A stretch of DNA of 64,000 nt from a virus, in the IMG/VR virus record IMGVR_UViG_3300027741_000024, positions 64,001 to 128,000 of that record; one strand, written 5' to 3'. This document shows, piece by piece, positions 21,301 to 55,537 of the stretch. Each line of letters opens with the position of its first letter. Position 1 is the first letter of the stretch. The notes below the pieces were generated by a model that saw only the letters and a list, made by a program, of their open reading frames with translations, had not been told where the DNA came from and searched no databases. Both the position numbers and the translations under genes were made by a program.

Positions 21301-21860
21301 GTTACGTGAAATATTATGATAATGTTTTGCCTAAGACATTTTGTGATTCTGTTATAAAGAAGTTTGAGAATCATCCAAAACAACACAGAGAAACCTTTTT
21401 AGAAGGGCATCGTTCATTCACCGAATTAAATTTGAATGAGAACATTGTAAGTTGGAAATCTGAAATAGACTATCTAGTAAGCACGATGCAAACCTATATG
21501 GATGTGTATAAGAAGGATGTCGGTGTTGATTTGATGGCATGGCCAGAAAACTTTGGATTTGAACAATTAAGGATGAAACGATATCTACCAAACGATCAAG
21601 ATGAGTTTAAGTTTCATGTAGATGTACAAGACTATGCCTCAGCACGTAGATTTTTGGTATTTTTTTGGTATCTGAATGATGTGGAAGAAGGTGGACAGAC
21701 AGCATTTCAACTCAACAGAAATCAACCGGTTAAAGTTAAAGTACAACCTAGAACAGGTCGCTTGCTAATGTTTCCACCATTGTGGACACACCCACATGTG
21801 GCATTCAAACCAGTAGATGTACCAAAGTATATTGTTGGTGGTTACTTACATTACGTTTAA
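21297..21860 (+). CDS. 2OG-Fe(II) oxygenase
   Basis: HVD, YLNDVEEGG, FPPLWTHPH, KYIVGGYL. Confidence 0.88.
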   Translation: MSYVKYYDNVLPKTFCDSVIKKFENHPKQHRETFLEGHRSFTELNLNENIVSWKSEIDYLVSTMQTYMDVYKKDVGVDLMAWPENFGFEQLRMKRYLPNDQDEFKFHVDVQDYASARRFLVFFWYLNDVEEGGQTAFQLNRNQPVKVKVQPRTGRLLMFPPLWTHPHVAFKPVDVPKYIVGGYLHYV

Positions 21861-21865
21861 AAATT

Positions 21866-22981
21866 ATGAATCTAACTAGAGATCAAGCAGTATATTGTGC
21901 TAACATCTATTCAAAATACTTTGATAAATTTCAGAGAATTGATGATTATATTCGTGATCAAAAACTAAATTCTTTATCTGAAAGACCTCCTACTTTGTTT
22001 GGTATGGGACCAGAAGAAGATTTATTTTCAGACTTTGATATACACCCACAAGATATGGAGTTTGAACTTGTAGAACTACCACAAAATAATTGGGACATTT
22101 ATTTGAACATGATTTCTTCACATTCAAATATGACTAGTATTCCTGGTAGATGTTTTCGTTTGGCAGTACAAGAAAAGAATACAAAGAAGTGGGTTGGTTT
22201 CATTCGTTTGGGTTCTCCTGTTATTAACATGAAACCAAGAAATGAAATGTTGGGTGGTGTATTTTCTCAAACACCCGAATCTGCAAAGTCATTTAATCAC
22301 ACATCGATTATGGGTTTTGTGATTGTACCTTCACAACCCTTTGGTTTTAATTACCTTGGTGGTAAACTACTTGCTGCAATCTGTTGTTCACATTGGGTCA
22401 AAGAAAAGTTAGATGCAAAGTATGACATGAATACCTGTTTGTTTGAAACGACAAGTCTTTATGGCAGTTCAAAGTCATCATCACAATATGATGGCATGAA
22501 ACCATATTTAAGATTCAAAGGTTTGACTGACAGCAATTTCTTACCAATGATGCACGGTAAACCTTATGATGATTTAAAGAACTATGTTGAGAATGCGATT
22601 GGTGAATTCGTACCTGCTGATGCATCATCACGTAAACTGAAAGTCTCAAACGCAATCATTTCAATGACTAAAGTGGCATTGAAAGGTTCACCAGAAGGTG
22701 AGAAGTTTGCACAGACTGTGGAGAATGCCTTGTCATTGACAGAAAAGAAACGATACTATGCCTCAAATTATGGTTACAGTAACTTTACAGATGTGGTCAT
22801 GGGTAAAACGGACAAATTGATTCCAGACAAGGAGAACTATGATAAGTTTCATCTGGAGACGATCATAGACTGGTGGAAGAAGAAATCAACGACCAGATAT
22901 GATACACTCAAGTCTGAGAATAGGCTACGCTCCGAGATAGAAGTATGGACAGGCGAAAAAGAACTTGACATTATCAGGTAA
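21866..22981 (+). CDS. DUF4338/DruA-like protein
   Basis: GFIRLGSP, VPSQPFGFNYLGGKLLAAICCSH, ETTSLYG, SQYDG. Confidence 0.7.
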   Translation: MNLTRDQAVYCANIYSKYFDKFQRIDDYIRDQKLNSLSERPPTLFGMGPEEDLFSDFDIHPQDMEFELVELPQNNWDIYLNMISSHSNMTSIPGRCFRLAVQEKNTKKWVGFIRLGSPVINMKPRNEMLGGVFSQTPESAKSFNHTSIMGFVIVPSQPFGFNYLGGKLLAAICCSHWVKEKLDAKYDMNTCLFETTSLYGSSKSSSQYDGMKPYLRFKGLTDSNFLPMMHGKPYDDLKNYVENAIGEFVPADASSRKLKVSNAIISMTKVALKGSPEGEKFAQTVENALSLTEKKRYYASNYGYSNFTDVVMGKTDKLIPDKENYDKFHLETIIDWWKKKSTTRYDTLKSENRLRSEIEVWTGEKELDIIR

Positions 22982-23023: not shown

Positions 23024-24145
23024 ATGGCAAAATCTTATTCAGCTGCAGAATTAACAAAGATGCAAGAACTCGGTTCTGCGTGGGTTTTTCGTAGAGTATT
23101 GAATGATAATCAAATATACAACACTCCAGACGATATTGTAAAAGATAAAAAGTATAGTGAGTTGGTGAAAATTTATCCAGCAATAAATGCTGAATGGTTG
23201 AAAGCATTTCATGCCCAACAAAAAACTATGTTTAAAGAATTCGCATCATCTAAGTTTACAGAGTTCACAAGAGATGGTGGATTTATGGATTACATTACAG
23301 AACTTGTTCGCACAAAATTTAAAATTTCTAAAAAAGATTCTTGGGATCCCGCTGATATTTGGTGTGTTCAGAATGAACAAAAAGTTATTGCGGATATTAA
23401 AAAGATAATTGAAGATGGTAAAGCATCCAGTCTTTTAGAGTTAAATGCTCTTATGAGAACAATGTATAAAGAAAGAAGGCTTGTTGGTGTTTCTCTAAAA
23501 TTAATTTCTGGTAAAGAAGCAAAGTATGAAGAAGTTAATATAAATGAGGCTGATTTTCCTGATAAGAAAAATTATAATTTCAACATATCATCAATGAAGT
23601 GCCCTTTAAATTTAAAAAATGGAACACAATTTGCAACGCAAGATACTAGAATTATTGTGGAAGGTGATGGCGTAAAATATGATTTTCAAATTAAAGCAAA
23701 TAGCACATCTGGTTATAATAACTTAAAATTTGAACCAACTTCATCAGCAGGTACTAAAGCGAGATTAGGTAAAACACCACTTGACTTGTTAGCAAAACTA
23801 CTGAAAGATTATAAACTGCCATTTAAAAATAGTCATAAAGAATATCCAATGACTGGCGCAGAGTTCAATGATAAAACTTCTTTACAATATGCCAAGAATG
23901 TATACAATTCAATTGTTGCGGCAAAAGTTGATACTGGTGTGAAAAATGAAGAAGAGTTTATTGCAAATATGCAAAAAGTATTTACACTTGAACCACATAC
24001 AGCGAATTCTAAATTAATGCAGTTAAACTTTTTATACAATATTTGTGAAATGGAAAAAGAAGAAAGAGATAATCTATTAACTGATATGTGCTTTCTTGCT
24101 CAGAAAAAAGGCCGCCAATTTGGTCCATTTGGAAAATTATACTAA
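23024..24145 (+). CDS. hypothetical late protein with PD-(D/E)XK-like motif
   Basis: SWDPADIW...LVGVSLK; follows TATAAATA. Confidence 0.6.
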   Translation: MAKSYSAAELTKMQELGSAWVFRRVLNDNQIYNTPDDIVKDKKYSELVKIYPAINAEWLKAFHAQQKTMFKEFASSKFTEFTRDGGFMDYITELVRTKFKISKKDSWDPADIWCVQNEQKVIADIKKIIEDGKASSLLELNALMRTMYKERRLVGVSLKLISGKEAKYEEVNINEADFPDKKNYNFNISSMKCPLNLKNGTQFATQDTRIIVEGDGVKYDFQIKANSTSGYNNLKFEPTSSAGTKARLGKTPLDLLAKLLKDYKLPFKNSHKEYPMTGAEFNDKTSLQYAKNVYNSIVAAKVDTGVKNEEEFIANMQKVFTLEPHTANSKLMQLNFLYNICEMEKEERDNLLTDMCFLAQKKGRQFGPFGKLY

Positions 24146-24146
24146 A

Positions 24147-25376
24147 ATGAAATTCAGAGAATATTTAACCGAAGCAAAAAAAGAAGGTAAGAACGTTCAC
24201 CTAGAACATCTTGAAGATAATGTATTGAACAATGGTGTGTCTGGTGCAAGAGAAGCAATCAACTTTCTGCGTTCACTTCGCAATATGTTAGCAGGTCATT
24301 CCGATGTTAAAGTAAACGTGACAACAAAATGGGATGGTGCACCTGCAATATTTTGTGGCATTAATCCAGAAAACGGTAAGTTCTTTGTTGGTACAAAATC
24401 TGTGTTCAACAAGAATGCCAAACTAAACTATACTGACGCAGACATTGATGAGAATCATCCATCAGAAGGACTGAATGATAAACTGAAGATTGCACTTGCA
24501 TACTTACCAAAGTTAGGTATCAAGGGTATTCTGCAAGGTGATATGATGTTCACCAAAGATGATTTAAAACACGAAACGATTGATGGTGAAGAGTATTTAA
24601 TATTTCAACCGAATACAATTGTGTATGCAGTACCAGCAAATACTAAACTGGCTAAGATGATGCAAGCCGCACAACTTGGTGTGGTATTTCATACATCATA
24701 TGTTGGTAAAAATATTGAGAACATGAAAGCATCATTCAATATCGATATTGGTCATTTACAAACAACTAAAGATGTTTGGTTCCGTGATGCATCATTCACT
24801 GACGCATCTGGTTCTGCCACATTCACAGAAAAAGAAACTGCTGACCTCACATCAATTCTTTCACAAGCAGGAAGATTGTTCACTACAATACCTGCACTCA
24901 TACTTAATAAGATTGCATCATCCGAAACTTATCTGATGCAAATTAAAACGTACAACAATACCAAAGTGCGTGAGGGTCAAGAGATTCGTGATACTAGGGC
25001 ACATGTAACCGGTTTGATGAAGTGGGTAGAAGATAAACTGAACAAAGAAATCTCTGCTGCAAAGAAAGCAGATACGAAAGAGAAACGCATCAAAGAGAAA
25101 ACAGAAGTCATGCGATTCTATCGTACCAATGCTGCACAACTAAAAAACATATTTGATTTGATGAATATGATCATTGAGGCAAAACTTATGATCATTCGTA
25201 AGTTGGAAACTATTCGTTCAATCGGCACATTTGTTCGTACTGATGATGGATTCAGAATCACAGCACCAGAAGGATTTGTAGCAGTAGATAAACTAAAAGG
25301 TAATGCATTGAAATTAGTTGATCGTTTAGAGTTCAGTCATCAGAATTTTAGTGCTGCTAAAAATTGGAGTAAATGA
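24147..25376 (+). CDS. conserved T4-like phage protein (DUF6267-like) with capsid-targeting-like N-terminus
   Basis: MKFREYLTE, HLEHLED, TTKWDGAPA, PEGFVA, KLVDRLEFS. Confidence 0.7.
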   Translation: MKFREYLTEAKKEGKNVHLEHLEDNVLNNGVSGAREAINFLRSLRNMLAGHSDVKVNVTTKWDGAPAIFCGINPENGKFFVGTKSVFNKNAKLNYTDADIDENHPSEGLNDKLKIALAYLPKLGIKGILQGDMMFTKDDLKHETIDGEEYLIFQPNTIVYAVPANTKLAKMMQAAQLGVVFHTSYVGKNIENMKASFNIDIGHLQTTKDVWFRDASFTDASGSATFTEKETADLTSILSQAGRLFTTIPALILNKIASSETYLMQIKTYNNTKVREGQEIRDTRAHVTGLMKWVEDKLNKEISAAKKADTKEKRIKEKTEVMRFYRTNAAQLKNIFDLMNMIIEAKLMIIRKLETIRSIGTFVRTDDGFRITAPEGFVAVDKLKGNALKLVDRLEFSHQNFSAAKNWSK

Positions 25377-25648
25377 TGGAATACGATATCAATAAGATTA
25401 TGGCAGAATATGGAGATAAAGATTTTGGTTTCTCCACAGTTGACGAAGTTGAATATGAAGCAGTTATTGCAGAAAAAAATGATACAGTCCAAGAATACAA
25501 AGATCGTTTAACTGAAGTAGAAAAAATTATCATGCCATTTTTGACCAATTTGCTCAAGTCAAAAGATCAACCATACATTCATTGGCCTAATCGTGGTCCA
25601 ATCATTGAGAAACAAATACAGAAGATATTGACGTTGACGAGGAATTAG
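25373..25648 (+). CDS. hypothetical protein
   Basis: DFGFS..., YIHWPNR; coupled. Confidence 0.65.
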   Translation: MMEYDINKIMAEYGDKDFGFSTVDEVEYEAVIAEKNDTVQEYKDRLTEVEKIIMPFLTNLLKSKDQPYIHWPNRGPIIEKQIQKILTLTRN

Positions 25649-25806
25649 TGAAATCGTTCAAAGAATATATTAAAGATTTAAAAGGTACACAAGAGTTTGT
25701 ATCTAAGGCTGGTGCTGGTGAATGGGGTAGACCAGAAACGGTACAAAAATATGTAAAAGACACACCAGGACAAACTATAGAACTATATAAGAAATACACT
25801 AATTAA
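25648..25806 (+). CDS. small hypothetical protein (52 aa, GTG start, not on track)
   Basis: GAGG RBS; MKSFKEYI...GAGEWG...KDTPGQ. Confidence 0.55.
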   Translation: MKSFKEYIKDLKGTQEFVSKAGAGEWGRPETVQKYVKDTPGQTIELYKKYTN

Positions 25807-25825: not shown

Positions 25826-26668
25826 ATGAAAGATTTGATCATTGGCTGCGCCACGAATTATAATTGGTCCAAATTAAAGTATTGGGTCAACTCTATCAAT
25901 CAATCAGGCTTTGAAGGTGATAAATGCCTGATTCTTATGAATTGTGATAAAGAAACCGTAGATAAGATTTCTGATGCGGGTTTTGCTATCATAGCATTCA
26001 ATCAAGATTCAAATGGTAATCTAACATACAACTCTAACATGATGGTGCATGTTGAGAGGTTCTTCCACATCTACAATGTTCTAAAAAATAATCTATATCG
26101 ATATGTAATTACCACTGATGTTAAAGATGTGATATTTCAAAAGAACCCATCTGAATGGTTAGAAAATAATTTATCAAAAGATGAAGATTTAGTATTTTCA
26201 TCTGAGAGTATGAAATATAAAGATGAGCCGTGGGGTAATCAAAATCTTATGGAAACATTTGGATCACAAATATATGAAGAGTTTAAGAATAATACTATCT
26301 TCAATGTAGGTGTTCTTGCTGGTCGTGGTTACGCCATGAAAGATTTGATGATGAATATCTTTACATCATGCGTTGGTCGTCCAATCAAAATTTGTGATCA
26401 GTCAACATTCAATTTCTTGATTTCACAACATCCATATCTAAAAACTTCCATGTATACCAAATCAGAAGATGGTTGGGCATGTCAGTTGGGCACAACTGCC
26501 GATCCAAGTAAGATAGATGAATTCCGTCCATTCTTACTTGAACCATCACCGAAATTAGATGGTGATAAGGTTGTAACTTCAGAAGGAATAGAGTATACTA
26601 TAGTACATCAATATGATCGTGTCCCAGAGTGGAAGAAAGTAATCGAGGAGAAATATAATGGTTTATGA
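25826..26668 (+). CDS. glycosyltransferase-like protein (GT-A)
   Basis: TTDVKDVIFQKNP, NVGVLAG, DQSTFN, IVHQYDR. Confidence 0.7.
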   Translation: MKDLIIGCATNYNWSKLKYWVNSINQSGFEGDKCLILMNCDKETVDKISDAGFAIIAFNQDSNGNLTYNSNMMVHVERFFHIYNVLKNNLYRYVITTDVKDVIFQKNPSEWLENNLSKDEDLVFSSESMKYKDEPWGNQNLMETFGSQIYEEFKNNTIFNVGVLAGRGYAMKDLMMNIFTSCVGRPIKICDQSTFNFLISQHPYLKTSMYTKSEDGWACQLGTTADPSKIDEFRPFLLEPSPKLDGDKVVTSEGIEYTIVHQYDRVPEWKKVIEEKYNGL

Positions 26669-27380
26669 AAAAATGTATATTAATAGTGATAATGAAACAT
26701 CACCTCAATCTAATCTAAAAGAAATATTCTGGAATTTGGACAAAGGTTGTACTAAATGGTCGGGTTACTTTGATGTGTATGAGAGACATCTGAGTAAATT
26801 CGTTGGTAAATCACCACGAATTTTGGAAATTGGTGTTCTTGGTGGTGGATCAATTGAGATGTGGTTAAAATACTTTGGTGAAGGCACAGAAGTTGTTGGT
26901 GTTGACATTAACGAAGAATGTAAAAATTATGTGTATGATGGTAAAGTAGAAATTGTAATGGGTGATCAAGGTGATCCACAATTTTGGGATCAATACCTAT
27001 CAGACAAAAAAGGATTTGATATCGTCATTGATGATGGTTCGCATGTGATGCAACATCAAATTACTACACTCAATAGTGTATTTCCACATGTAAGACCTGG
27101 TGGTGTTTATATTTGTGAAGATACACATACAAGTTACTGGCCACAACCATGGGGTGGTTCATTCCGTGGCGCTGGCACGTTCTTGGAACATGCCAAACGC
27201 ACGACAGACATTTTAAATCAACAACACTTTCAGGGTGAACCAATAATGCCTGAAGTTTTATCAAAATATTCAGGTCTATACTCTGTAGCATTCTATAATA
27301 GTATGGTTGTATATGAAAGAGAATCATTAAAAACATTTGGTATTGTAGATAACAAAGCAAATGTAGGACGTGATCTATGA
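26658..27380 (+). CDS. class I SAM-dependent (sugar) O-methyltransferase
   Basis: ILEIGVLGGGS, GVDI, GDQ, DIVIDDGSH, GGVYICED. Confidence 0.85.
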   Translation: MVYEKMYINSDNETSPQSNLKEIFWNLDKGCTKWSGYFDVYERHLSKFVGKSPRILEIGVLGGGSIEMWLKYFGEGTEVVGVDINEECKNYVYDGKVEIVMGDQGDPQFWDQYLSDKKGFDIVIDDGSHVMQHQITTLNSVFPHVRPGGVYICEDTHTSYWPQPWGGSFRGAGTFLEHAKRTTDILNQQHFQGEPIMPEVLSKYSGLYSVAFYNSMVVYERESLKTFGIVDNKANVGRDL

Positions 27381-28093
27381 AGATAGCATTATGTTTATCT
27401 GGTCAAGCACGAAGTGTGGAAGCAGGATATGAATTTCATAAGAAAAATATTATAGAAGGTAATGATGTAACTGTATTCTTTCACACATGGACACAAGATG
27501 ATATGAGTTTCTATCGGAAGATTATAGACTTGTATAATCCTGAATTATCGGTTGCTGAAGATCCGCTTGATGAAGATTTGTCAAAATACACAAGAACTCC
27601 ACCACCATCACCAAACTGGAAAGTAAAGGATGGTAGAATGTCAACATTTGCTCAACTGTATGCTATTCAAGGTTGCAATCAGTTGAAATCTGAATATGAA
27701 CTTGAAAACAATATGACATTTGATTGGGTGATTCGGTCACGATTTGATTTTGCCATCAACGCTAAGATACCGTTTGATGAATTGGATAACAGCAAACTGT
27801 ACATTCCAAATTGCCGTATGGTACCAACCAAAGATTTTGGTAATGATCAGTTCGCATTCTCATCATCTAAGAATATGGATAACTATGCAGAATGTTATAA
27901 TCATATTGACAAATTCTATGATTCTGGTGTACAATATATGTGTGAAGATTTTATGAGTGCTAACTGGAAGAAATACGGTATGGTTGGTGAGAATCTGGTA
28001 TACTGTGATGTCAACCATCCATTTCCACCAGGTGAGTATAACGGAACACCACATTCTTTAATCAGGGAAGATTTTAAAAAATGGTTAACTTAG
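27377..28093 (+). CDS. putative glycosyltransferase
   Basis: KIALCLSGQAR, FFHTW, FDWVIRSRFD, NDQFA. Confidence 0.65.
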   Translation: MKIALCLSGQARSVEAGYEFHKKNIIEGNDVTVFFHTWTQDDMSFYRKIIDLYNPELSVAEDPLDEDLSKYTRTPPPSPNWKVKDGRMSTFAQLYAIQGCNQLKSEYELENNMTFDWVIRSRFDFAINAKIPFDELDNSKLYIPNCRMVPTKDFGNDQFAFSSSKNMDNYAECYNHIDKFYDSGVQYMCEDFMSANWKKYGMVGENLVYCDVNHPFPPGEYNGTPHSLIREDFKKWLT

Positions 28094-28818
28094 TTATCTG
28101 TATGGCGGGTTATAATACCCGTTTTCATGATGTTGGTTTTGATATTCCAAAGTATCTGTTGCCTTGGAATAACACAACAATCATTCACGATATCTTAAAT
28201 AATTTTGGTGAAACGTACCAAACAATTCTTGTTGCAAACAAGCGTGATGTTTATTTCAAAGATCAATTACTAGAAACCATCAAACCATTTGGATTAGATG
28301 AGAAGAACATTCTATACATTGGTGATACTAAAGGTCAAGCACATACTGCTGCCATAGGTATTGATCAACTGTATGATGACAACATACCAACATTCATTCA
28401 TAATGCAGATACAATTGTTACAGGTCGATCTTTAAATCTGATTGCTGATTCGATGAATAATCTGTATGATGCTTATATTGATGTGTTTGTTGGCAACTCA
28501 CCAAAGTATTCATATGTTCGGGCATTTGAAGAAACTGTACTGGAAATTGTAGAGAAGAAACAAATCTCACCATATGCTTCATCAGGACTATATGGATTTT
28601 TGACGGGTAATATGTACATGAGTTTTTTTAATTCACTTTGGGCGAAACAATATGAAGAAAAGAGTGAACTGTATGTAGCAGATGTGATTCAAAGTATGAT
28701 TGCTGGAGGTAAACAAGTATTCATGAATGGTCTTGGAAATAACCAAGAAACGATTGTACTTGGCAGTCCACAAGAATATGGTATTGAGATAGCAAGACAA
28801 ACATTAGGTGCAAGATGA
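28081..28818 (+). CDS. sugar-phosphate nucleotidyltransferase
   Basis: ICMAGYNTRF...PKYL, TKGQAHT, HNAD, IVEKKQIS..ASSGLYGF, LGSPQE. Confidence 0.8.
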   Translation: MVNLVICMAGYNTRFHDVGFDIPKYLLPWNNTTIIHDILNNFGETYQTILVANKRDVYFKDQLLETIKPFGLDEKNILYIGDTKGQAHTAAIGIDQLYDDNIPTFIHNADTIVTGRSLNLIADSMNNLYDAYIDVFVGNSPKYSYVRAFEETVLEIVEKKQISPYASSGLYGFLTGNMYMSFFNSLWAKQYEEKSELYVADVIQSMIAGGKQVFMNGLGNNQETIVLGSPQEYGIEIARQTLGAR

Positions 28819-29783
28819 TATCCGCAGTAAAGAAACTTAAAGGTGGTTCCCTTAGTTCCACATACTATATTAAATCTTGTGAACAAGAATGTATCAGTAA
28901 AGAAATTGTTCGTGATCAAAATCGTGAATATGGTTTCGTTCGTTGGTATTCACAACTAAAGAAATTGCAACGATATAATACATTGTATCCTAATCTATTT
29001 CCACAAGTTATTAATGTTGGTGTTGATCACAATAAAGCATTCTTCAAAATAGAATATATGAAAGGTTTTCGTGACATTAAAAATATTCTGACTAACGACA
29101 CTCTGACTGATGAACAAATCTTTCGTATGAGTCAAGCGGTGTGGAAAGGTCTGAATCAACTTCATTCAGTCACACATGATCCAATACCGGGAGCAGGTAA
29201 TTTATATTTTGAAGAAGAAGTACAACAAAAGATAACCGATGCACTTGTTGTGCCAGAGTTTGCTGAGTTTTATTCTTATGGAACATATGAGTATCATGAT
29301 ACAATTGTTCAAGGTATAGGTGCTTCAATAAACGACTTAGAAAATTTCTTTTCCGAGTTAAAGTTGGTACAAGAGGAAAACATTCATGGTAATCCTACAC
29401 TAGAAAACATTTTATATTCATTTGAGGAAGATCGTGTGGTATTTATTGATGTATATGAAGAAAGTATGATTGATACTAGGTTTTTGGACTATGCACAAGT
29501 TTTACAATGCTCACGCAGTAATTATGGTTACATAAATGATAATCAGGTAGATATAGATGGTGTTTCTGTAACTCATAGGTTGCAGATACCAAAGAATTTT
29601 GAAACCTTTAACTATCATTTTGAGTCAGGAATTACCGAAAAAAGAACTAAAGAGATTGTGAACATTTTTGAGGCAACTCAGTTCATTCGTATGCTTCCAT
29701 TCAAAGTTCTGGCAGGTGATATAGATAAAGCAAAGTTCTTTTATATTCAGGCGTGTTATTTGTTAAGTAAGGTATTTAAATGA
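28815..29783 (+). CDS. APH/choline-kinase-fold small-molecule kinase
   Basis: GGSLS glycine loop, IEYMKG, HGNPTLENIL, VVFID. Confidence 0.72.
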   Translation: MISAVKKLKGGSLSSTYYIKSCEQECISKEIVRDQNREYGFVRWYSQLKKLQRYNTLYPNLFPQVINVGVDHNKAFFKIEYMKGFRDIKNILTNDTLTDEQIFRMSQAVWKGLNQLHSVTHDPIPGAGNLYFEEEVQQKITDALVVPEFAEFYSYGTYEYHDTIVQGIGASINDLENFFSELKLVQEENIHGNPTLENILYSFEEDRVVFIDVYEESMIDTRFLDYAQVLQCSRSNYGYINDNQVDIDGVSVTHRLQIPKNFETFNYHFESGITEKRTKEIVNIFEATQFIRMLPFKVLAGDIDKAKFFYIQACYLLSKVFK

Positions 29784-30919
29784 ATGATTTTATGATGGAT
29801 TACGACAAGTTCAAACGGACTTGGACAGTCAAAACAGAATTACCAGTAGAGTTCAAACTAACATACTCTGCTGATATTTTCAATCCTTTGAACCATGACT
29901 TGGTATCGTATAAGACTAACGATAGAGTGATGATTGTTATTGATCAGAATGTTCATAAGTTTTACACTGTAGAATTAATGAACTATTTCAATTCCCATAA
30001 TGTTAAATATTCTATGTTGGTTATTGATACTGACGAAGAAAGCAAGACATGGGAAGATGCAGACTATATTTTACAATTTTTTGAAGATGAAGGAGTGTTA
30101 CGCCGTGAACCGATTATCGCCATTGGTGGTGGTGTCTTGCTTGACATTGTTGGGTTTGCTTGCAGCATATATCGCCGTGGAATCCCTTACATCAAAGTCC
30201 CAACTACTTTACTGGCCATTGTTGATGCTTCCGTAGGGTCGAAGGTAGCAGTTAATCATTTTGAAAGACGCAATCGTCTTGGTGCATACTATCCACCAAT
30301 TGCCACATTGATCGACAAGAAGTTCATTAAGACACAAAGTGAACGTGAAATCGTTAATGGTATTGCTGAGATATTCAAGTTAGCAGTTATCAAATCACCA
30401 GAACTATTCACACTACTTGAAGAGAATGCTGAACTGTTGATTGAAGAGAAGTTTCAGCACGGCGCAGTACCAGTTCGTGTCATCAATCTTGCTATCACAG
30501 ATATGATTGCTGAACTTGGTCCTAATCTATGGGAAAGAAAACTAGATCGATGTGTAGACTTTGGTCACACATTCAGTCCTGTGATTGAGATGACAAATAT
30601 ACCAGAATTATTGCATGGGGAAGCAGTAGCACTTGATTGCTTGTATAGTTCATGTATTGCTTGTCTGCGTGGTTACATAGGTCAGAGTGTTCTCAACAGA
30701 ATATTCAATCTAGCAAAACGATTAAAACTAAAAACATTTCATGAAGGTTTCACAAACATGGAATTACTTCAGAAAAGTTTATCGGACGCAACTAAACATC
30801 GTAATGGTAATCAGTATGCACCGTTGCCAATATATGTGGGTAATTATAAAATTGTGAATGATATTACAAAATCGGAAATGGAATACGCTATCGCACTTTT
30901 TAGGACTTATCATGATTAA
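29780..30919 (+). CDS. sedoheptulose-7-phosphate cyclase, 2-epi-5-epi-valiolone synthase (EEVS) type
   Basis: DHQS-fold GGGVLLD and PTTLLAIVDASVG; EEVS-type MIAELGPNLWE..LDRCVDFGHTFSP; LLHGEAVALD. Confidence 0.85.
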   Translation: MNDFMMDYDKFKRTWTVKTELPVEFKLTYSADIFNPLNHDLVSYKTNDRVMIVIDQNVHKFYTVELMNYFNSHNVKYSMLVIDTDEESKTWEDADYILQFFEDEGVLRREPIIAIGGGVLLDIVGFACSIYRRGIPYIKVPTTLLAIVDASVGSKVAVNHFERRNRLGAYYPPIATLIDKKFIKTQSEREIVNGIAEIFKLAVIKSPELFTLLEENAELLIEEKFQHGAVPVRVINLAITDMIAELGPNLWERKLDRCVDFGHTFSPVIEMTNIPELLHGEAVALDCLYSSCIACLRGYIGQSVLNRIFNLAKRLKLKTFHEGFTNMELLQKSLSDATKHRNGNQYAPLPIYVGNYKIVNDITKSEMEYAIALFRTYHD

Positions 30920-31589
30920 GAAAAATGCTGTGGTGACAGGTTGCAGTTATGGTTTGGGTGCAGAGATTTGTCGTAAATTAATTGACGATGGTTATCATGT
31001 CTATGGTCTATCACGCAGTAAACCACCAGAAAGTTTCTTGAAATTTCCAGAAGATTTTACATGGGTTGAATGTGATATTTCAAGTTACGATGACGTTAGA
31101 TTGGCATTCAAATATATGAACCAATATACCGATATCCTAGTCAATAATGCTGGTGTATTTACTGGTGGAAAGTTTGCAGCACAAAATCATGAAGCAATTG
31201 ATAAAGTTATTGATGTTAATGTCAAAGGTGCGATGTATGTTACCAACGAAGCATTGAAGTGGATGCCATCAGGATCACGCATATTCTTTATTAATTCAGT
31301 TTCTGGTTTGTATGAGATAGAGTATGAAGCAATCTATGGTGCATCTAAACATGCACTCACTGCATTTGCGGGTGTGTTAGGTAAAGAATTGCAAAGTCGT
31401 GGCATCTATGTAACTAGTATTCATCCTGGCAGTATTGAGACTCCGATGCAACGAAATAATCCGAACAATGCACCAGATAAGTTTTTGAAACCAGAAGAGA
31501 TTGCTAATCTGATTTCATTTATTTGTAAGACCGAAAATGTAGAATATAAAACAATCAAACTATTTCCAAGGACAGAATGGCACCAATGA
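30912..31589 (+). CDS. short-chain dehydrogenase/reductase
   Basis: TGCSYGLG, LVNNAG, YGASK, HPGSIET. Confidence 0.9.
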   Translation: MIKKNAVVTGCSYGLGAEICRKLIDDGYHVYGLSRSKPPESFLKFPEDFTWVECDISSYDDVRLAFKYMNQYTDILVNNAGVFTGGKFAAQNHEAIDKVIDVNVKGAMYVTNEALKWMPSGSRIFFINSVSGLYEIEYEAIYGASKHALTAFAGVLGKELQSRGIYVTSIHPGSIETPMQRNNPNNAPDKFLKPEEIANLISFICKTENVEYKTIKLFPRTEWHQ

Positions 31590-32284
31590 AAGATAAAACA
31601 TTATTCATCGTAACATCAGCTTTGAATGCTGATATGGGTGTGGTTAGTCGCACCGACAGGTTTGATCAGACTATGAAAGGTCTGATATCAATTCGTAAGT
31701 ATGTACCTGATGCCATTATTCTTTTAACAGATGGATCGCCTCATGAAATTGAAAAAGCAAAATTAAAAGCAATTTCACACTTTGCTAATTTTGCTGCCGA
31801 TTTTTCTGGCGATGAACAAATAACTGAGTTGGCTATTAATCATCGTAAAAGTGAAGCAGAAAATCTTTTGATGTTGAAAACTTTAATGCTTTTACAACAA
31901 GATGAGGATATGAAAGAAGTTATGAATAATGTTGAACGTATATTCAAGTTATCAGCACGAACTGATCTGACTGATGAATTTAACGTTGAAGAACATATGC
32001 ATCAGGGTAAGTACGTATTTAAGAAAAGGATGCCAACTTGGTTGGAAGATTCTCGTAATGAGTTTGCTACAGACCTACTGATTACACGTATGTTTTCGTT
32101 CTGTCCAACACTGATGAACGATTACATGAAAATGTGTGAAAATAATATTTCACTGATTCTTCAGACTAGAATTGATACGGAACACGCACATTTTGTCAAT
32201 ATTAACAAAGATTTATTAGTAGAATTAGATGAAATTCACTGTACAGGCATCATGGCTGGCACTGGTGCAGTTGAAAATTACTAA
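31577..32284 (+). CDS. hypothetical protein, possibly glycosyltransferase-related
   Basis: LFIVTSA, RFDQT, IFKLSAR, EH motif; coupled to the cluster. Confidence 0.55.
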   Translation: MAPMKDKTLFIVTSALNADMGVVSRTDRFDQTMKGLISIRKYVPDAIILLTDGSPHEIEKAKLKAISHFANFAADFSGDEQITELAINHRKSEAENLLMLKTLMLLQQDEDMKEVMNNVERIFKLSARTDLTDEFNVEEHMHQGKYVFKKRMPTWLEDSRNEFATDLLITRMFSFCPTLMNDYMKMCENNISLILQTRIDTEHAHFVNINKDLLVELDEIHCTGIMAGTGAVENY

Positions 32285-32321: not shown

Positions 32322-34436
32322 ATGAAATTTAGCGATTTTCTGCGTGAGCAGAAAGAAAAACATGCTGTACTGGCATTCGGGCGTATGAACCCGATAACTT
32401 CTGGTCACGAAAAATTAGTCAACAAAGTCAAAGATATTGCCGATAAAGTCGGTGGTTCTCATCACATCGTTCTGTCACATTCACAAGACTCTAAAAAGAA
32501 TCCTCTTACAGCAGCACAAAAAGTCAAGCATGCCAAACGTGCATTTCCCAATACTAATTTTACTGCCGCAAATAAAGATGCACCAACATTCTTTCATCAC
32601 GCAGAGAAACTTCATAAACAAGGTGTAACTCACCTTCATATGGTAGGTGGTTCTGATCGTACAGACGAGTACCATAAACTCTTACACAAGTATAATGGTA
32701 CACATGAAGGTGCTCGGTTTAACTTCAAATCAATCAAAGTCCATTCTGCTGGTGAACGTGATCCTGATGCTGAAGGCACAACTGGTATTTCCGCAAGTAA
32801 GATGCGTGAACATGCCACTAAAGGCAACTTCAAAGAATTCAAAAAAGGTGTACCATCTTCAATGTCTCATGAACATGCTAAACACATGTACAATGATGTT
32901 CGTAAAGGCATGAATCTGCATGAGTCTATTCTAGCAGAAGGTGTACACGATAAAGCAATATTCAAAGCCGTATTTTTAGCAGGTGGTCCAGGTTCTGGTA
33001 AAGATTATGTTCTGTCAAATACACTTGACGGACACGGCATGATTGAAATCAATTCAGATAAAGCATTAGAGTATCTGATGGATAAAGAAAATCTGGATAA
33101 GACTATGCCAGATAACGAAGCAGGACAACGTAATGCAGTTCGCAAAAAGGCTAAAGATATTACAGAAATTCGTAATCGTCTAGCACTTCATGGTCGTAAT
33201 GGCTTAATCATTAATGGCACTGGTGCTGATCCAAAAGAATATGAAGAAATCAAAAAGAAACTAGAGAAGTTAGGTTACGATACTTCAATGATCATGGTTA
33301 ATACCGATGATGAAGTATCAAAAGCCAGAAATGTAGAACGTGGTCAACGTGGTGGTCGTACAGTGCCAGAAGAGATTCGTAAGAAAAAATGGGAAGAAGT
33401 ACAGGCAGCACGTGCTCAGTTTTCTAAAATATTTCGCAACAACTATATTGAATTTGATAACTCTGAAGATTTACGTAATGCATCACCAGATGTTGTCAAA
33501 GCAAAAAAAGAAGAGATGCAACAAATTTTCAAACAGATTCAAAAGTTTGTTGATACGCCTCCAAAAAGTGAACAATCAAAACATTGGATAGCATCAGAGT
33601 TAGGTCAAAAAGACACAGCACCAATTAGCAAAACCGCACAACCTAATACAAATGCAAAAACAAACGATGAGATGAATGCGATGGGTCTTGAGTATTATGG
33701 ATTCGGTCGTTACGGTAAAAATGGTAAAGTTACTCATCGTTCAGTGCATGATCATTTAGTGCCAGTTGAGAAAATTGCTAAAAAAGTCAACGAAGCATTT
33801 GAAGATTTGTTTGAAGAAGAAGAAAAAAAGAAAAAACAAAAACTTATGTCGGATACAAATGGAAAACCAAAAGTGTTTCATTTTCGTATGTCTGCTGCAA
33901 AGGAAGCACATCGTAACAATGGTATAGTTCACAAAGTTGGAAAAACGTATGTTGTTAAAATCAGAGAGGACTTAAATGAAATATCTTCACCAGATAATAA
34001 TGCTATTGAAGCAATTTATGGACAAAATATCTCCACCCCCAGTGCAAAACAACTTGGCAAAGTTGGAACCAACTTTAGACCAAAAGGAAAACCTGCCCTT
34101 GACAAACCAGTCAGTGAGTCGGACAACGGAAGCGGAAGTGAAACCCGCCCGAAAATCACCCTCAACAAAATCAAAGAAAACTGGAACAAGAAAACCCAAG
34201 AGTCCATCGACAAAGGGATAGAACCAGGTCTTTCAATGGCAAGTTCAGGTGAATCACCTGCACGTGATACTGGTGAGAAGTTAAGTAAGAGAGGTAAAGC
34301 AACACAAGTTATACCATCATCAATCACTGAGTTGACTGGTGATGAAACAACTGCATCTATTGGTGATCAAAAAGAAGATGAGTTGAAGAAAAAAGGTATC
34401 TCACTTACAACATTTAAAAAGAGAAACTTTGTATGA
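32322..34436 (+). CDS. HxGH-type cytidylyltransferase-like domain + zeta-toxin-like P-loop kinase domain
   Basis: FGRMNPITSGHEKL, VGGSDR, SASKMR; FLAGGPGSGK, INSD, IINGT; CTS-like MKFSDFLRE; ACTAAATA upstream. Confidence 0.75.
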   Translation: MKFSDFLREQKEKHAVLAFGRMNPITSGHEKLVNKVKDIADKVGGSHHIVLSHSQDSKKNPLTAAQKVKHAKRAFPNTNFTAANKDAPTFFHHAEKLHKQGVTHLHMVGGSDRTDEYHKLLHKYNGTHEGARFNFKSIKVHSAGERDPDAEGTTGISASKMREHATKGNFKEFKKGVPSSMSHEHAKHMYNDVRKGMNLHESILAEGVHDKAIFKAVFLAGGPGSGKDYVLSNTLDGHGMIEINSDKALEYLMDKENLDKTMPDNEAGQRNAVRKKAKDITEIRNRLALHGRNGLIINGTGADPKEYEEIKKKLEKLGYDTSMIMVNTDDEVSKARNVERGQRGGRTVPEEIRKKKWEEVQAARAQFSKIFRNNYIEFDNSEDLRNASPDVVKAKKEEMQQIFKQIQKFVDTPPKSEQSKHWIASELGQKDTAPISKTAQPNTNAKTNDEMNAMGLEYYGFGRYGKNGKVTHRSVHDHLVPVEKIAKKVNEAFEDLFEEEEKKKKQKLMSDTNGKPKVFHFRMSAAKEAHRNNGIVHKVGKTYVVKIREDLNEISSPDNNAIEAIYGQNISTPSAKQLGKVGTNFRPKGKPALDKPVSESDNGSGSETRPKITLNKIKENWNKKTQESIDKGIEPGLSMASSGESPARDTGEKLSKRGKATQVIPSSITELTGDETTASIGDQKEDELKKKGISLTTFKKRNFV

Positions 34437-39859: not shown

Positions 39860-40251
39860 TGTCATTTGATAATTTAACTGATGAGAATGTCATACTCTAT
39901 GCAGTAAAAGCATATGACACACCAAATTGTGTAATGAGTGAGTTTACTGAAGATATGAAGCGGTTGAATTATCTTAAACGTTTATTCCGAAGATATCGTA
40001 AACATGGTGAGATGCGTGAGCGTCTTATACTAAATCATATAGTAGTGTTAAACAATTTGTTTGGACCAGAAGTCACAACCAGATTGTTATTTTTTCGTAT
40101 GTCAAAAGACGATTATAGTGTAATGAAAACCTATTTGACCTTTTTGAATTTGATGCCAGAACGTGTCAAAGGAATAAATGGAAAAGATATTATATCATCA
40201 GATATTCAAATTGACATGCCAGTAGCAGATGTACTTAGGACTCTAAAATGA
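39859..40251 (+). CDS. conserved T4-like hypothetical protein
   Basis: EFTEDMKRLNYLKRLFRRY, ERLILNHIVVLNNLFG. Confidence 0.7.
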   Translation: MSFDNLTDENVILYAVKAYDTPNCVMSEFTEDMKRLNYLKRLFRRYRKHGEMRERLILNHIVVLNNLFGPEVTTRLLFFRMSKDDYSVMKTYLTFLNLMPERVKGINGKDIISSDIQIDMPVADVLRTLK

Positions 40252-40997
40252 TAATTGGACCAGGAATAACAATTGGCGGTGGAATAAATGTGGACACTCA
40301 AATTCCATCATACTCAATTGTTACAACTAATCTATTTGCCAACTACGATGCCGCTACAGGTATAAGTGGTAGCACATTTCTTGATAGTAGTGGTAATGGC
40401 CGTAATGCTACCCTATTCAACACTCCTACAACTACAACGGTTAACGGAACAACAGTATTAATATTAACCAGTGCTTCAAGTCAATACTTTGGTTACACTA
40501 CTGGTTATGGTACAAGTTTAGATTCTGCATTTACTTTTGATGTATGGTGTCGCAATTTATCAGGCAGCACGGCAGGAACATTAATTGGAGAGTGGAGTAA
40601 CAACACATTTAGTAGTGGATGGACTGATGCACAGATGGGATTTAATGCCACACAAATTAATTGTGGAGTATATAATACTGGATATGCTACTGCACAGGCT
40701 AGTTGGAACAATACAACGTGGTATAATATTGTAATGACTTATAATAGTGCTGCAGGTATTGCCACTTATGTTAATAACACAGCCGGTGCCACAAAAGCAG
40801 GAGCAAAACAAAATCCAAGTGGTACTGGCACATTCTTGAGTATGGGTAAACCTGATGGTGCCGGTGGTGGTTATCTAAACGGAGTCACTAATTATTTTAA
40901 CGGATACATAGGCGTTTGGAAAATATACAATCGTGCTTTAACATCAATTGAAGTAACACAAAACTTTAACGCTTTGCGTGGAAGATACGGATTATAA
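40248..40997 (+). CDS. LamG/concanavalin A-like lectin-domain protein
   Basis: DSSGNGRNATL, WYNIVMTYN, IYNRALTSIEVTQNFNA. Confidence 0.8.
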   Translation: MIIGPGITIGGGINVDTQIPSYSIVTTNLFANYDAATGISGSTFLDSSGNGRNATLFNTPTTTTVNGTTVLILTSASSQYFGYTTGYGTSLDSAFTFDVWCRNLSGSTAGTLIGEWSNNTFSSGWTDAQMGFNATQINCGVYNTGYATAQASWNNTTWYNIVMTYNSAAGIATYVNNTAGATKAGAKQNPSGTGTFLSMGKPDGAGGGYLNGVTNYFNGYIGVWKIYNRALTSIEVTQNFNALRGRYGL

Positions 40998-41934: not shown

Positions 41935-42549
41935 ATGGAATTAACAAAACAACAATTAAAACAATTACTTCCAAAAAATCCATACATTGATCAGTGGCAT
42001 CATGCTCTGAGTCAATTGCTTCCGGATTATGAGATCAATACGCCAAAACGTATTGCATCATTCATGGCACAATGTGCTCATGAGTCGGGTGATTTTGTTT
42101 TTCTCTCTGAAAATTTAAATTACAAAGCAGAAAGTCTAGTTAAGATATTTGGAAAATACTTCAAAGATATTAACACGGCTAAAGCATACGAAAAGAAACC
42201 CGAAAAAATTGCCAACAAAATCTATGCAGATCGTATGGGTAATGGTAACGAAGCATCTGGTGATGGATTCAAATACCGAGGTCGTGGTCTAATTCAATTG
42301 ACTGGTAAAACAAACTATACATGGTTTGCAGCATCATTAGAAATTACACCAGAAGAAGCAGCAGAATACATGGGCACCTTTGAGGGTGCAGCACAATCAG
42401 CATGTTGGTTCTGGGAAACTAACAAACTGAATGAATGGGCAGATAAAGGTGACATTGAGAAGATGACTAAAATCATCAACGGTGGCACAATTGGACTTGA
42501 AGATCGTAAAAAACATTATGCACATGCACTTCACGTTTTAGGAGCATAA
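41935..42549 (+). CDS. GH19 endolysin
   Basis: AQCAHESG, ENLNY, YRGRGLIQLTGKTNY, INGGTIGLEDR. Confidence 0.92.
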   Translation: MELTKQQLKQLLPKNPYIDQWHHALSQLLPDYEINTPKRIASFMAQCAHESGDFVFLSENLNYKAESLVKIFGKYFKDINTAKAYEKKPEKIANKIYADRMGNGNEASGDGFKYRGRGLIQLTGKTNYTWFAASLEITPEEAAEYMGTFEGAAQSACWFWETNKLNEWADKGDIEKMTKIINGGTIGLEDRKKHYAHALHVLGA

Positions 42550-43851: not shown

Positions 43852-44892
43852 ATGTCCCTTTCTACTGATTCAAAATACGTCCGTCTAATTTCTTCACGTT
43901 TGCGTAACTTCAAACAGAAGAATACTAATCTATGGAACTTTTCTTGTCCGTTCTGTGGAGATTCTCAAACAAACAAACTCAAAGCCCGTGGTTATGTTTT
44001 TGCCAGGGGCAATGATCTATTCTTTCGTTGTCACAACTGTGGAGCAGGTACGAATGTTGCCAATTTACTCAAGCAAGTCGATTCTTCATTACATGGAGAG
44101 TACATACTTGAAAGATACAAGTCGGGTGAATCCAATACATTCGTCCGCAAAAGTAACACTGCACCCACATTCAACATACCTGCACCAAGGTTCGGCAAAC
44201 CAGAAAGACAAAGAGTATTTGAACACGCAGAGTGGGTATCAGACCTGCCAAGTGGACATTTTTGTCTAAACTATGTTGAGAATCGTTTATTACCAAAAGA
44301 AGTATACAATCAATTACTATTCACTAGTAAGTATAAAGAGTTTTGTGATACACTGATACCAGATCATGGTAAGACTGTAATTGATGATGCACGATTGATT
44401 ATACCATTCTTTGACAGAAACAATGAATTAGTTGCAGTCTCTGGTCGTGCATTAGAAACATCCGATAAGACTCTGAGGTATGTAACACTACGTACCAATG
44501 ACAGTGATGACAAACTTATCTATGGCATGGATAGAGTGAATTTGAATGAAACAGTGTACCTTGTTGAAGGTCCACTTGATTCTTTATTTCTAAAGAATTG
44601 TGTGGCATCTGGTGATGCAAACCTTTCATTAACAGCAAAAAATATTTCAGCAAAGAAATTGGTGCTGATTTTTGATAATGAACCAAGAAATAAAGAAGTA
44701 TGTAAGATGATTGAAAATGCCATTAAGTCCAATCATTATGTCGTTATCTGGCCTGACAACATGGATGGTAAAGATATCAATGAAATGATATTGAACGGGT
44801 TTTCAAATGGCGAAATCCAAGATATCATAGATAGTAATACATTTTATGGTTTGGAAGCAATAGCGAAGTTTACATTCTGGAAGAAATTATGA
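43852..44892 (+). CDS. 61: DNA primase gp61
   Basis: CPFCGDS, CHNCG, VEGPLDSLF, FDNEPRN, KDINEM. Confidence 0.95.
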   Translation: MSLSTDSKYVRLISSRLRNFKQKNTNLWNFSCPFCGDSQTNKLKARGYVFARGNDLFFRCHNCGAGTNVANLLKQVDSSLHGEYILERYKSGESNTFVRKSNTAPTFNIPAPRFGKPERQRVFEHAEWVSDLPSGHFCLNYVENRLLPKEVYNQLLFTSKYKEFCDTLIPDHGKTVIDDARLIIPFFDRNNELVAVSGRALETSDKTLRYVTLRTNDSDDKLIYGMDRVNLNETVYLVEGPLDSLFLKNCVASGDANLSLTAKNISAKKLVLIFDNEPRNKEVCKMIENAIKSNHYVVIWPDNMDGKDINEMILNGFSNGEIQDIIDSNTFYGLEAIAKFTFWKKL

Positions 44893-55462: not shown

Positions 55463-55537
55463 CTGGCGTTAGTATAATGGATAATACAGAGGATTTCTAC
55501 TCCTTTAATGTGGGTTCGATTCCTACACGCCGGACCA
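55463..55537 (+). tRNA. tRNA-Arg(UCU)
   Basis: Acceptor CTGGCGT/ACGCCGG, D arm GTAT/ATAC, anticodon loop TTTCTAC, T loop TTCGATT, encoded CCA. Confidence 0.9.

Follow-up and report, generated by a model that had tools for sequence, protein, structure and literature searches.

What use would a freshwater phage have for the enzymes of carbasugar biosynthesis? The question is raised by eight genes at positions 25826-32284 of a 64,000-nucleotide stretch of DNA (the window), which comprises bases 64001-128000 of the 146-kb IMG/VR virus record IMGVR_UViG_3300027741_000024 (CheckV completeness 85%). The source is an uncultured freshwater phage distantly related to T4: the record carries the T4-like markers gp43 polymerase, UvsX, gp41 helicase, gp23 capsid, primase, ribonucleotide reductase (RNR) and endolysin, and its gp43 polymerase is only about 50% identical to cyanomyovirus polymerases. 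We consider it moderately probable that the stretch is a phage glycan island in which a four-gene core (nucleotidyltransferase, kinase, cyclase and short-chain dehydrogenase/reductase, SDR) makes a nucleotide-activated C7 cyclitol. As a wider and distinctly more tentative proposal, widespread freshwater T4-like phages, and bacteria that share the core, may build C7-carbasugar glycoconjugates by way of an APH-fold kinase subfamily that lacks the catalytic Asp, the phages exchanging this core for cassettes of ordinary sugars within a hypervariable island whose products decorate the virion or the infected cell.

The open reading frame (ORF) listing of this interval contains exactly eight ORFs, all on the plus strand and here called g1 to g8 (Table 1). 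Neighbouring genes overlap by 4-13 nt at all seven junctions, which indicates a translationally coupled unit, and the eight-gene arrangement is far beyond chance. An earlier reading of the window (the original prediction) had described eight co-oriented genes with overlapping junctions, and the listing and overlaps agree with it; its gene identities also proved largely right by profile matches and AlphaFold2 (AF2) folds, with weaker evidence for the glycosyltransferase (GT) calls on g1 and g3.

The cyclase g6 has the two-domain DHQS fold (PF01761, 1.5e-35; PF24621, 1.8e-19). Its best match among solved relatives is ValA (4p53; 4.5e-86, 292 bits), followed by Anabaena DDGS (5tpr; 2.1e-65, 224 bits), the true DHQS enzymes (at best 146 bits, 1e-41 or weaker) and DOIS (2d2x; 85 bits). 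The residues that separate EEVS (the synthase of 2-epi-5-epi-valiolone) from DDGS we take to include L267, D281 and H360 in ValA against E254, A268 and T347 in DDGS, positions reportedly identified by Kean in 2014 and Osborn in 2017. When g6 is aligned with 4p53 and 5tpr, these three sites, out of 14 that have been published, carry the residues of ValA and not those of DDGS: L246, D260 and H340 (aligned segments ELGPN / VDFGH / KHRNG in g6, ELQPN / VDFGH / KHRDG in ValA and LEVPN / IAYGH / LTRDG in DDGS). The Glu/His/His metal ligands are present (E197/H263/H279), and the ligands and the three fingerprint residues are invariant among 12 phage homologues. By these residues g6 is an EEVS-type cyclase with predicted activity on sedoheptulose 7-phosphate, and the EEVS call of the original prediction stands, ValA being both the top solved relative and the source of the matching residues. 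In INPHARED (GenBank phages) there was no DNA match to the cluster and no match for the kinase g5; the protein matches to the cyclase were host aroB in contaminated or misfiled records and were rejected as phage homologues.

Two of the other core genes belong to familiar superfamilies. The product of g7 is a classical SDR (PF00106, 2.6e-40; phrog_3142), and its start most likely lies at 30912 rather than 30858, judging from homologue alignments that begin near residue 20 of the long ORF; at 30912, ATGATTAA overlaps the cyclase stop and the N-terminus reads MIKKNAVVTGCSYGLG. The proposed role of g7 is that of an AcbN-like ketoreductase acting on the C1 carbonyl of the cyclitol. The product of g4 is a short nucleotidyltransferase of the RmlA/GlmU superfamily (N-terminal loop MAGYNTRF; phrog_3980), which matches the nucleoside diphosphate (NDP)-sugar pyrophosphorylase 4evw in the PDB at 2.8e-18 and the NCBIfam models TIGR01208 rmlA_long (3.4e-10) and Arch_glmU (5e-10), both below their curated cut-offs; we propose that it is a cyclitol-phosphate nucleotidyltransferase.

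The third, g5, is adjacent to g4. It had no match in the Pfam scan, the APH model included, weak generic kinase matches only in PADLOC, and nothing usable in PDB sequence and profile searches, and its fold is taken from the AF2 model only (pLDDT 89). In that model g5 has the bilobal APH/choline-kinase fold. Foldseek matches it to N-acetylhexosamine 1-kinase NahK, methylthioribose kinase MtnK, APH(2''), fructosamine-3-kinase FN3K and LicA (4r7b), and VIA aligns 246 residues to choline/ethanolamine kinase 3dxq (Z 18.0, root-mean-square deviation 3.1), with Z 17.7 to APH(4)-Ia and Z 17-17.7 over APH(4), APH(2''), maltokinase and MtnK. The motifs of the ATP/Mg site are intact (glycine-rich loop LKGGSLS, K29, N198, D212); G10-G11-S12, K29, N198 and D212 are invariant in the phage alignment, and N198 and D212 fall where the secondary structure of the model puts the catalytic loop and the DFG-equivalent. 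The catalytic loop reads H191-G-N193-P-T-L-E-N198, with Asn replacing the catalytic Asp of the Brenner motif HxDxxxxN, and the model strands put this loop exactly at the kinase catalytic-loop site. All characterised APH/choline-kinase enzymes known to us carry the catalytic Asp.

These assignments suggest a route. The cyclase g6 would convert sedoheptulose 7-phosphate to 2-epi-5-epi-valiolone, and g7 would reduce the ring carbonyl to a hydroxyl; g5 would phosphorylate the cyclitol, for which the simplest site is the pseudo-anomeric hydroxyl just formed (NahK and MtnK, structural neighbours of g5, are kinases of the anomeric position), and g4 would couple the cyclitol phosphate with a nucleoside monophosphate (NMP) to give an NDP-cyclitol. 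The soluble, phage-specific, GT-A-like g3, with g1 and g8, would then build or decorate a glycoconjugate, g3 being the likeliest user of the cyclitol donor, and g2 could add an optional methyl group. That a cyclase, reductase, kinase and nucleotidyltransferase make an NDP-cyclitol for transferases was the logic of the original prediction, and the gene identities support it. A biochemical precedent for the chain from kinase through nucleotidyltransferase to transferase is provided by AcbU, AcbR and AcbS, in which the cyclitol 1-kinase AcbU and the cyclitol nucleotidyltransferase AcbR/VldB give GDP-valienol (PMC9200736).

The grouping is conserved well beyond the window. A cyclase search yielded 41 IMG/VR loci at 65-96% cyclase identity, and a further 119 relatives, mostly metagenomic, are listed at >=83% identity; the stretch itself was found again in freshwater metagenomes from several studies, with no RNA sequencing run among the listed runs that contain it. 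The order g1, g3, g4, g5, g6, g7, g8 is kept in 41 of 41 IMG/VR loci wherever the contig reaches, which supplies the co-occurrence in related genomes on which the original prediction had made itself depend. The methyltransferase g2 (PF13578 Methyltransf_24, 2.7e-7; PF04989 CmcI-like, 9e-4; phrog_21658 methyltransferase, 6e-24) is accessory and dispensable: of 33 loci in which its slot is covered, 8 lack it and 3 have it at another place.

That the stretch is an island emerged when DUF6267, the gene on its left flank, was used as the query. Distant relatives have DUF6267 near their homologue of g9, the first gene to the right of the island, and in two of them (L107, L110) the genes are directly adjacent; no island genes were detected between the two in L107-L114. 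Moreover, the N-terminal part of phrog_455 (764 aa) covers DUF6267 and its C-terminal part covers the N-terminal domain of g9. The closeness of the two genes in distant relatives, together with phrog_455, indicates that the island splits an older pair to which it is functionally untied; it would thus be an insertion between DUF6267 and the cytidylyltransferase-kinase gene g9, and g9 probably works with DUF6267 and not with the island. DUF6267 and g9 form a conserved pair; the kinase part of g9 also matches a PHROG of polynucleotide kinases, a possible sign of RNA repair or nucleotide salvage.

Within these borders the core itself is exchangeable. Nine close siblings (L054, L058, L062, L063, L065, L096, L080, L081, L073) keep g1, g3 and g8 and, in most cases, g2, with g4-g7 missing. 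In L058 and L062 the slot holds a short APH-type kinase with a canonical HGDLTLEN loop (15262-15999 in L062) and a nucleotidyltransferase-HAD fusion, joined in L058 by a 4,6-dehydratase-like enzyme; L087 and L099 carry GT4 and HAD-NTP_transferase genes. On these gene assignments the slot always encodes a predicted sequence of phosphorylation and then nucleotidylation, for which the cyclitol core is one donor-supply module among several. Exchange of the donor module between related phages is what diversifying selection on a surface glycan would be expected to produce.

The same core occurs outside phages. The order of g4-g7 is also found among the surface-polysaccharide genes of bacterial-type contigs: an NCBI assembly with 45% GC (L050) has nucleotidyltransferase, kinase, cyclase and SDR in the phage order near Wzy_C, Glycos_transf_4, GT2, H-NS and ABC transporter genes; in a second locus (L051) these four genes precede those for a UDP-glucose dehydrogenase, epimerase/dehydratase, methyltransferase, GT2, HAD and NTP_transferase; and a Tara contig has the four-gene core between GT2 and GT1 genes. 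A variant on a 55-kb contig with 35% GC (L049) comprises a cyclase, an aldo-keto reductase, a kinase and a nucleotidyltransferase-like gene. The cyclases of the bacterial cores have EEVS-type residues at the three sites (the first being Leu or Ile) and keep the metal ligands. A scan of genome contigs with narrow peptide patterns returned three loci, including a Prevotella cyclase in a different context and a 4.2-kb contig (L044; JBILGG010000259.1) in a lake 'Candidatus Caenarcanales' metagenome-assembled genome (MAG). The latter carries a phage-type nucleotidyltransferase-kinase-cyclase-SDR cassette, 50-61% identical to the phage kinase and cyclase, and was set aside as host evidence, the contig being probably a phage fragment mis-binned into the bacterial MAG.

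Of the three genes that would use the donor, g8 is the clearest in fold. It has no family match; its AF2 model (pLDDT 93.6) has a GT-A fold, matched by Foldseek with probability 1.0 to GT6 and GT8 enzymes (alpha-1,3-GalT, glycogenin, GTB, BoGT6a) and by VIA at Z 13-14 overall, with Z 13.8 (root-mean-square deviation 3.4; 195 of 235 residues) to 2d0j and Z 13.5 to the metal-independent BoGT6a (4ayl). Its structural neighbours include viral GT-A proteins. No conserved DxD motif follows strand 119-126 in the alignment, where the segment reads S126-A-R128-T-D/I/N; R121, K124, S126 and R128 are invariant, as are D52-x-S54 and D200-T-E202-H203. Metal-independent GT-A enzymes do exist, BoGT6a among g8's own matches being an example. 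The product of g3 matches PF25072 (DUF7796; 6.8e-9) and is probably GT-A-like: the annotations of its distant homologues in cyanophages read GT family 6 or capsular polysaccharide biosynthesis, and the g8 model has a DUF7796 protein as one of its structural neighbours. For g1 the evidence consists of phrog_1579 glycosyltransferase (8e-6), weak matches of its homologues to GT_PLOD and Nucleotid_trans, an invariant acidic motif TTDVKDV (D98, D101) and Atlas neighbours that are all viral, one cluster having PF03407 in 10% of members. PDB sequence and profile searches gave nothing usable for g1 and g8.

Identity to the window copies distinguishes these three genes. For g3, compared at similar levels of g1 identity (82-85% and 80-90%, respectively), it is 78-89% in core-bearing loci and 48-74% in core-less ones, and g8 is 80-82% identical in the core-less L058, L063, L065 and L096, exceeding most core-bearing loci. 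The identity of g3 tracks the cassette type and that of g8 does not, which suggests that g3 rather than g8 handles the variable donor. There is thus modest evidence for g3 as the best candidate user of the product of the exchangeable cassette; g1 and g8 form a framework kept whichever donor cassette is present.

The comparison with validamycin and acarbose biosynthesis made in the original prediction survives in its functional logic, and not in its enzymes: the phage set has no ROK kinase, 2-epimerase, dehydratase, aminotransferase or GT-B pseudoglycosyltransferase (PMC9200736). As in the GDP-valienol branch (AcbC/ValA, AcbN, AcbU, AcbR/VldB, AcbS/VldE; PMC9200736), a cyclase, an SDR, a candidate cyclitol kinase and a candidate cyclitol-phosphate nucleotidyltransferase would supply an NDP-cyclitol donor to a transferase, and the phage cyclase has the ValA residues at the three sites compared. 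The reference pathway employs a ROK C7 kinase (AcbM/ValC), a 2-epimerase (AcbO/ValD) and a dehydratase (AcbL) on the way to the unsaturated valienol skeleton (PMC9200736); Pfam and NCBIfam scans of the eight ORFs found no ROK, VOC-type epimerase or Zn-ADH-type protein, and the phage set has neither the 2-epimerase and dehydratase nor a phosphatase or an aminotransferase. The kinases differ as well (APH fold with an Asn catalytic site in the phage, ROK in AcbM/ValC and adenosine-kinase-like in AcbK, to which enzymes this comparison is limited), as do the transferases (GT-A-like against GT-B of GT5/GT20) and the setting (a lytic phage and bacterial polysaccharide loci against an actinomycete secondary-metabolite cluster).

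Several observations weigh against our reading. The scores of g4 lie far below the cut-offs of named nucleotidyltransferase families, and g5, being without the canonical catalytic Asp, may be slow or differ in mechanism, if it is a kinase at all. For g1 and g3 the assignment to GT-A is weak. No relationship emerged when the profiles of g1, g3 and g8 were compared with one another, and hidden Markov models of the three detected no homologues in the bacterial core loci, which leaves adjacency as their link to the cyclitol. With the 2-epimerase and dehydratase missing, the donor would be a saturated cyclitol, and we know of no GT-A enzyme that transfers a saturated carbasugar. The pseudoglycosyltransferases known so far all take GDP-valienol, which is allylic, as donor and an amine as acceptor (PMC9200736).

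The missing kinase base and the saturated donor make a transfer of the CDP-alcohol type a serious variant, although an unlikely one in our estimate. The core would be the same, and the NDP-cyclitol would behave like CDP-glycerol, CDP-ribitol or CDP-choline: the cyclitol phosphate would be moved with NMP as the leaving group, giving a phosphodiester and not a pseudo-glycosidic link. This would suit a saturated cyclitol without anomeric reactivity, given the allylic donor and amine nucleophile that known pseudoglycosyltransferases need (PMC9200736). The structural neighbours of g5 include choline kinases (3dxq, Z 18) and LicA (4r7b), recalling the kinase and cytidylyltransferase logic of LicA/LicC, and distant g5 relatives are fused to IspD/MobA-like domains of the cytidylyltransferase type; g8 lacks DxD, and a 'Stealth protein', of the hexose-1-phosphoryl transferase family, is among its viral structural neighbours. 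However, the best family matches of g4 are to RmlA/GlmU-type sugar-1-phosphate enzymes, the closest solved folds to g8 are true glycosyltransferases, and no LicD-type or TagF-type phosphotransferase was found in the Pfam scan of the cluster.

A different doubt concerns g5 itself, which might be a scaffold or pseudokinase, or an enzyme that has the pseudokinase fold and a different chemistry (for example the nucleotidyl transfer of SelO), in which case the NDP-cyclitol route would differ. Searched with a profile, 1.84 billion representatives yielded 548 related clusters; among the best 150 of these the motif pattern was found in 100, with HGN in 82 and HGD in 11, the 11 HGD representatives being the most distant members of the family, and HGN is invariant in 14 phage homologues. 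The Asn replaces the catalytic Asp in every close family member while HGD is kept in distant relatives, a pattern that, like the failure of the Pfam APH model to detect g5, would fit a non-kinase. Yet the glycine-rich loop, K29, N198 and D212 are invariant; conservation as strict as this over 82 clusters (50% identity) speaks for catalysis; the gene is invariably placed between nucleotidyltransferase and cyclase and can be fused to the latter; and HGD homologues fill the same position in the alternative cassettes. We accordingly regard a non-kinase g5 as quite improbable.

The Asn variant, which is clearly under selection, appears from its gene neighbourhoods to be tied to the cyclitol substrate. 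In a small sample, all HGN members with readable surroundings (phage loci, L044, L047, L049, L050, L051-L053 and one Tara contig) adjoin, or are fused to, an EEVS-like cyclase; the fusion, P0159 in L047, is a natural 728-aa kinase::cyclase protein on a contig with 66% GC, with a nucleotidyltransferase just upstream. Three HGD relatives have no cyclase nearby and neighbour either DegT, radical SAM and GT2 genes or HAD, DUF7796, TylF and transaldolase genes. Other distant HGD relatives are fusions of nucleotidyltransferase, HAD and kinase or of nucleotidyltransferase and kinase, which fit the logic of a kinase followed by a nucleotidyltransferase. In fold and in its pairing with an adjacent nucleotidyltransferase, g5 resembles the salvage pairs of anomeric sugar kinase and nucleotidyltransferase (NahK, MtnK, LicA/LicC); it differs in its Brenner motif, HGN and not HGD, and in its substrate, presumably a carbocycle that the cyclase next to it produces de novo.

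Some members of the kinase family are of interest in their own right. P0133 (480 aa, HGN) has a C-terminal GIY-YIG and NUMOD3 homing-endonuclease module, as a fusion or a read-through gene call; this hints that homing endonucleases adjoin the cassette and may help its movement between T4-like phages. At L124:1771-5953 an HGD relative lies with a HAD hydrolase, DUF7796, a TylF-type O-methyltransferase and a transaldolase/FSA-family gene, a group that may be another sugar island joining DUF7796 with a sedoheptulose-related enzyme. A DegT aminotransferase, a radical SAM/SPASM enzyme and GT2 are recurrent companions of other HGD kinases of the superfamily (L121, L122, L123, P0242), kinase and radical SAM enzyme being a single fused protein in P0242; this set looks like a further uncharacterised sugar-modification module.

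To what would the NDP-cyclitol be transferred? Membrane-span-like segments are missing from all eight proteins, the sole hydrophobic peak being the glycine-rich Rossmann core of the cyclase, so the acceptor should be cytoplasmic or on the cytoplasmic face of the membrane. Virion proteins are the leading candidate, tentatively; an acceptor of some other kind comes slightly behind, precursors of host envelope glycans are possible but more doubtful, and DNA is improbable. The original prediction had favoured virion decoration from a position among late and virion genes, a setting that was not found: the gp23 gene lies about 40 kb upstream (genome 50455), and the cluster sits in a replication, recombination and nucleotide-metabolism region, with DNA polymerase, UvsX and gp41 helicase on one side and endolysin, primase, thymidylate synthase and RNR on the other.

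Such a setting is what one might expect if the island hypermodified phage DNA, placing an NDP-cyclitol (or the alternative sugar of sibling phages) on a base while donor cassettes diversify under restriction pressure. T-even phages have glucosylated and arabinosylated cytosines, and T4-like phages are known with DNA-glycosylation clusters that include their own nucleotide-sugar synthesis (PMC13326640; bioRxiv 10.1101/2023.12.21.572611); all proteins of the cluster are soluble, and an arms race would suit donor cassettes that can be exchanged. However, the 5hmC, 5hmU and 5hoC of known phage DNA glycosylation come from a ThyA-family enzyme (PMC13326640), and the 146-kb record, 85% complete and searched with positive controls, has no such enzyme, its thymidylate-synthase-like gene at 44889-45554 being unmatched by the ThyA family model. 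No C5-cytosine methyltransferase was found in the record either. The lack of both enzymes disfavours DNA as the acceptor, as does the presence of the same core in bacterial polysaccharide loci, and we judge DNA hypermodification to be improbable.

Least probable of all is a free small molecule, either a gadusol-like ultraviolet sunscreen (EEVS, methyltransferase and oxidoreductase) or a validamycin-like glycosidase or trehalase inhibitor altering host metabolism: EEVS with a methyltransferase-oxidoreductase does give gadusol in vertebrates (PMC4426668), EEVS, SDR and methyltransferase are all in the cluster and known EEVS products are secondary metabolites, but the methyltransferase is gone or moved in about a quarter of relatives with the rest kept, gadusol needs no kinase or nucleotidyltransferase, the cluster scans show no aminotransferase or GT-B pseudoglycosyltransferase for an aminocyclitol inhibitor, the bacterial neighbours of the core are polysaccharide genes, and ordinary sugar-activation genes occupy the same slot in sibling phages. 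The likeness to the pathways of gadusol (EEVS and MT-Ox) and mycosporine-like amino acids (DDGS, O-MT and ATP-grasp) is that of a sedoheptulose-7-phosphate cyclase near a methyltransferase and an oxidoreductase (PMC4426668). The phage fingerprint is that of EEVS and not DDGS, its methyltransferase is optional and unfused to the oxidoreductase, the cluster adds a kinase, a nucleotidyltransferase and GT-A-like proteins, and the Pfam scan of the cluster found no ATP-grasp or NRPS-like ligase.

The closest parallels to a glycan island are viral: T-even DNA glycosylation clusters and the virion glycosylation of mycobacteriophages and chloroviruses likewise combine their own nucleotide-sugar synthesis with virus-specific GT-A-type transferases (PMC13326640; PMC9614988), and there too cassette content varies between related viruses. 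Here, the donor would be a carbocyclic pseudo-sugar, and no DNA-hydroxylating enzyme of the ThyA family was found in the record. The logic of an NDP-cyclitol is already known from actinomycete antibiotics; what is new are the enzymes in three of the roles (an APH-fold HGN kinase, a short nucleotidyltransferase and GT-A-like transferases), the glycan-locus context and the viral carrier. A search of full-text literature gave no paper that links EEVS or sedoheptulose-7-phosphate cyclases with phages, viruses or polysaccharide loci, in line with the statement in the original prediction that such a phage pathway is undescribed.

Antibiotics, enzyme inhibitors and sunscreens are the known products of sedoheptulose-7-phosphate cyclases; building blocks of glycans or viruses are not known among them. 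On the wider, more tentative proposal this would be the first viral carbasugar pathway, and the first to lie outside secondary metabolism, producing a glycosidase-proof sugar mimic. If our reading is right, the pathway would add a new class of carbocyclic, hydrolysis-resistant monomers to microbial and viral glycobiology. It would also define an uncharacterised four-gene pathway in many environmental bacteria, supply a natural enzyme set for NDP-carbasugars (useful as glycosyltransferase probes and inhibitors) and offer a kinase subfamily in which to probe the need for the 'catalytic' Asp. The exchangeable cassette would amount to a phage glycan diversification akin to that of bacterial O-antigens, pointing to an unknown selective agent that acts on phages.

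Table 1. Genes of the putative glycan island and its boundaries (window coordinates)
Feature	Position	Strand	Length	Assignment
DUF6267 gene (left boundary, outside pathway)	24096..25376	+		PF19782, 2.4e-119
Conserved ORF (left boundary, outside pathway)	25373..25648	+	91 aa	
g1	25826..26668	+	280 aa	Candidate GT-A-like transferase
g2	26658..27380	+	240 aa	Class I SAM-dependent methyltransferase, CmcI / rhamnosyl O-MT-like
g3	27377..28093	+	238 aa	DUF7796, probably GT-A-like
g4	28081..28818	+	245 aa	Sugar-1-phosphate-type nucleotidyltransferase
g5	28815..29783	+	322 aa	APH/choline-kinase-fold small-molecule kinase (predicted)
g6	29780..30919	+	379 aa	EEVS-type sedoheptulose-7-phosphate cyclase (predicted)
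g7	30912..31589 (long ORF from 30858)	+	225 aa from revised start	Classical SDR
g8	31577..32284	+	235 aa	GT-A-fold transferase without DxD (AF2 model)
g9 (right boundary)	32322..34436	+	704 aa	Cytidylyltransferase-like plus AAA_33/Zeta-type P-loop kinase; PF01467, PF06414, PF13671

Scans for sigma-70 promoters and terminators gave counts at or below the shuffled expectation, and no clear copy of the T4 late-promoter TATAAATA was found upstream of g1. Between the 91-aa ORF and g1 is a gap of 177 nt, the greater part of which is taken up by a GTG-start frame of 52 codons absent from the ORF list (window 25649-25806), and small ORFs at this site 5' of g1 vary among related loci (L058, L062). Further upstream, at 21782-22981, is a phage protein (phrog_19197) with a DruA / DUF4338-like domain (Pfam 9e-9; PADLOC DruA 2e-7), a phage-encoded homologue of a component of the Druantia defence. 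Downstream of the cluster, in an otherwise replication-type region, are a Laminin_G_3 / virion-structural-like protein (40248-40997), the endolysin (41935-42549) and a tRNA-Arg(TCT) (55463-55537).

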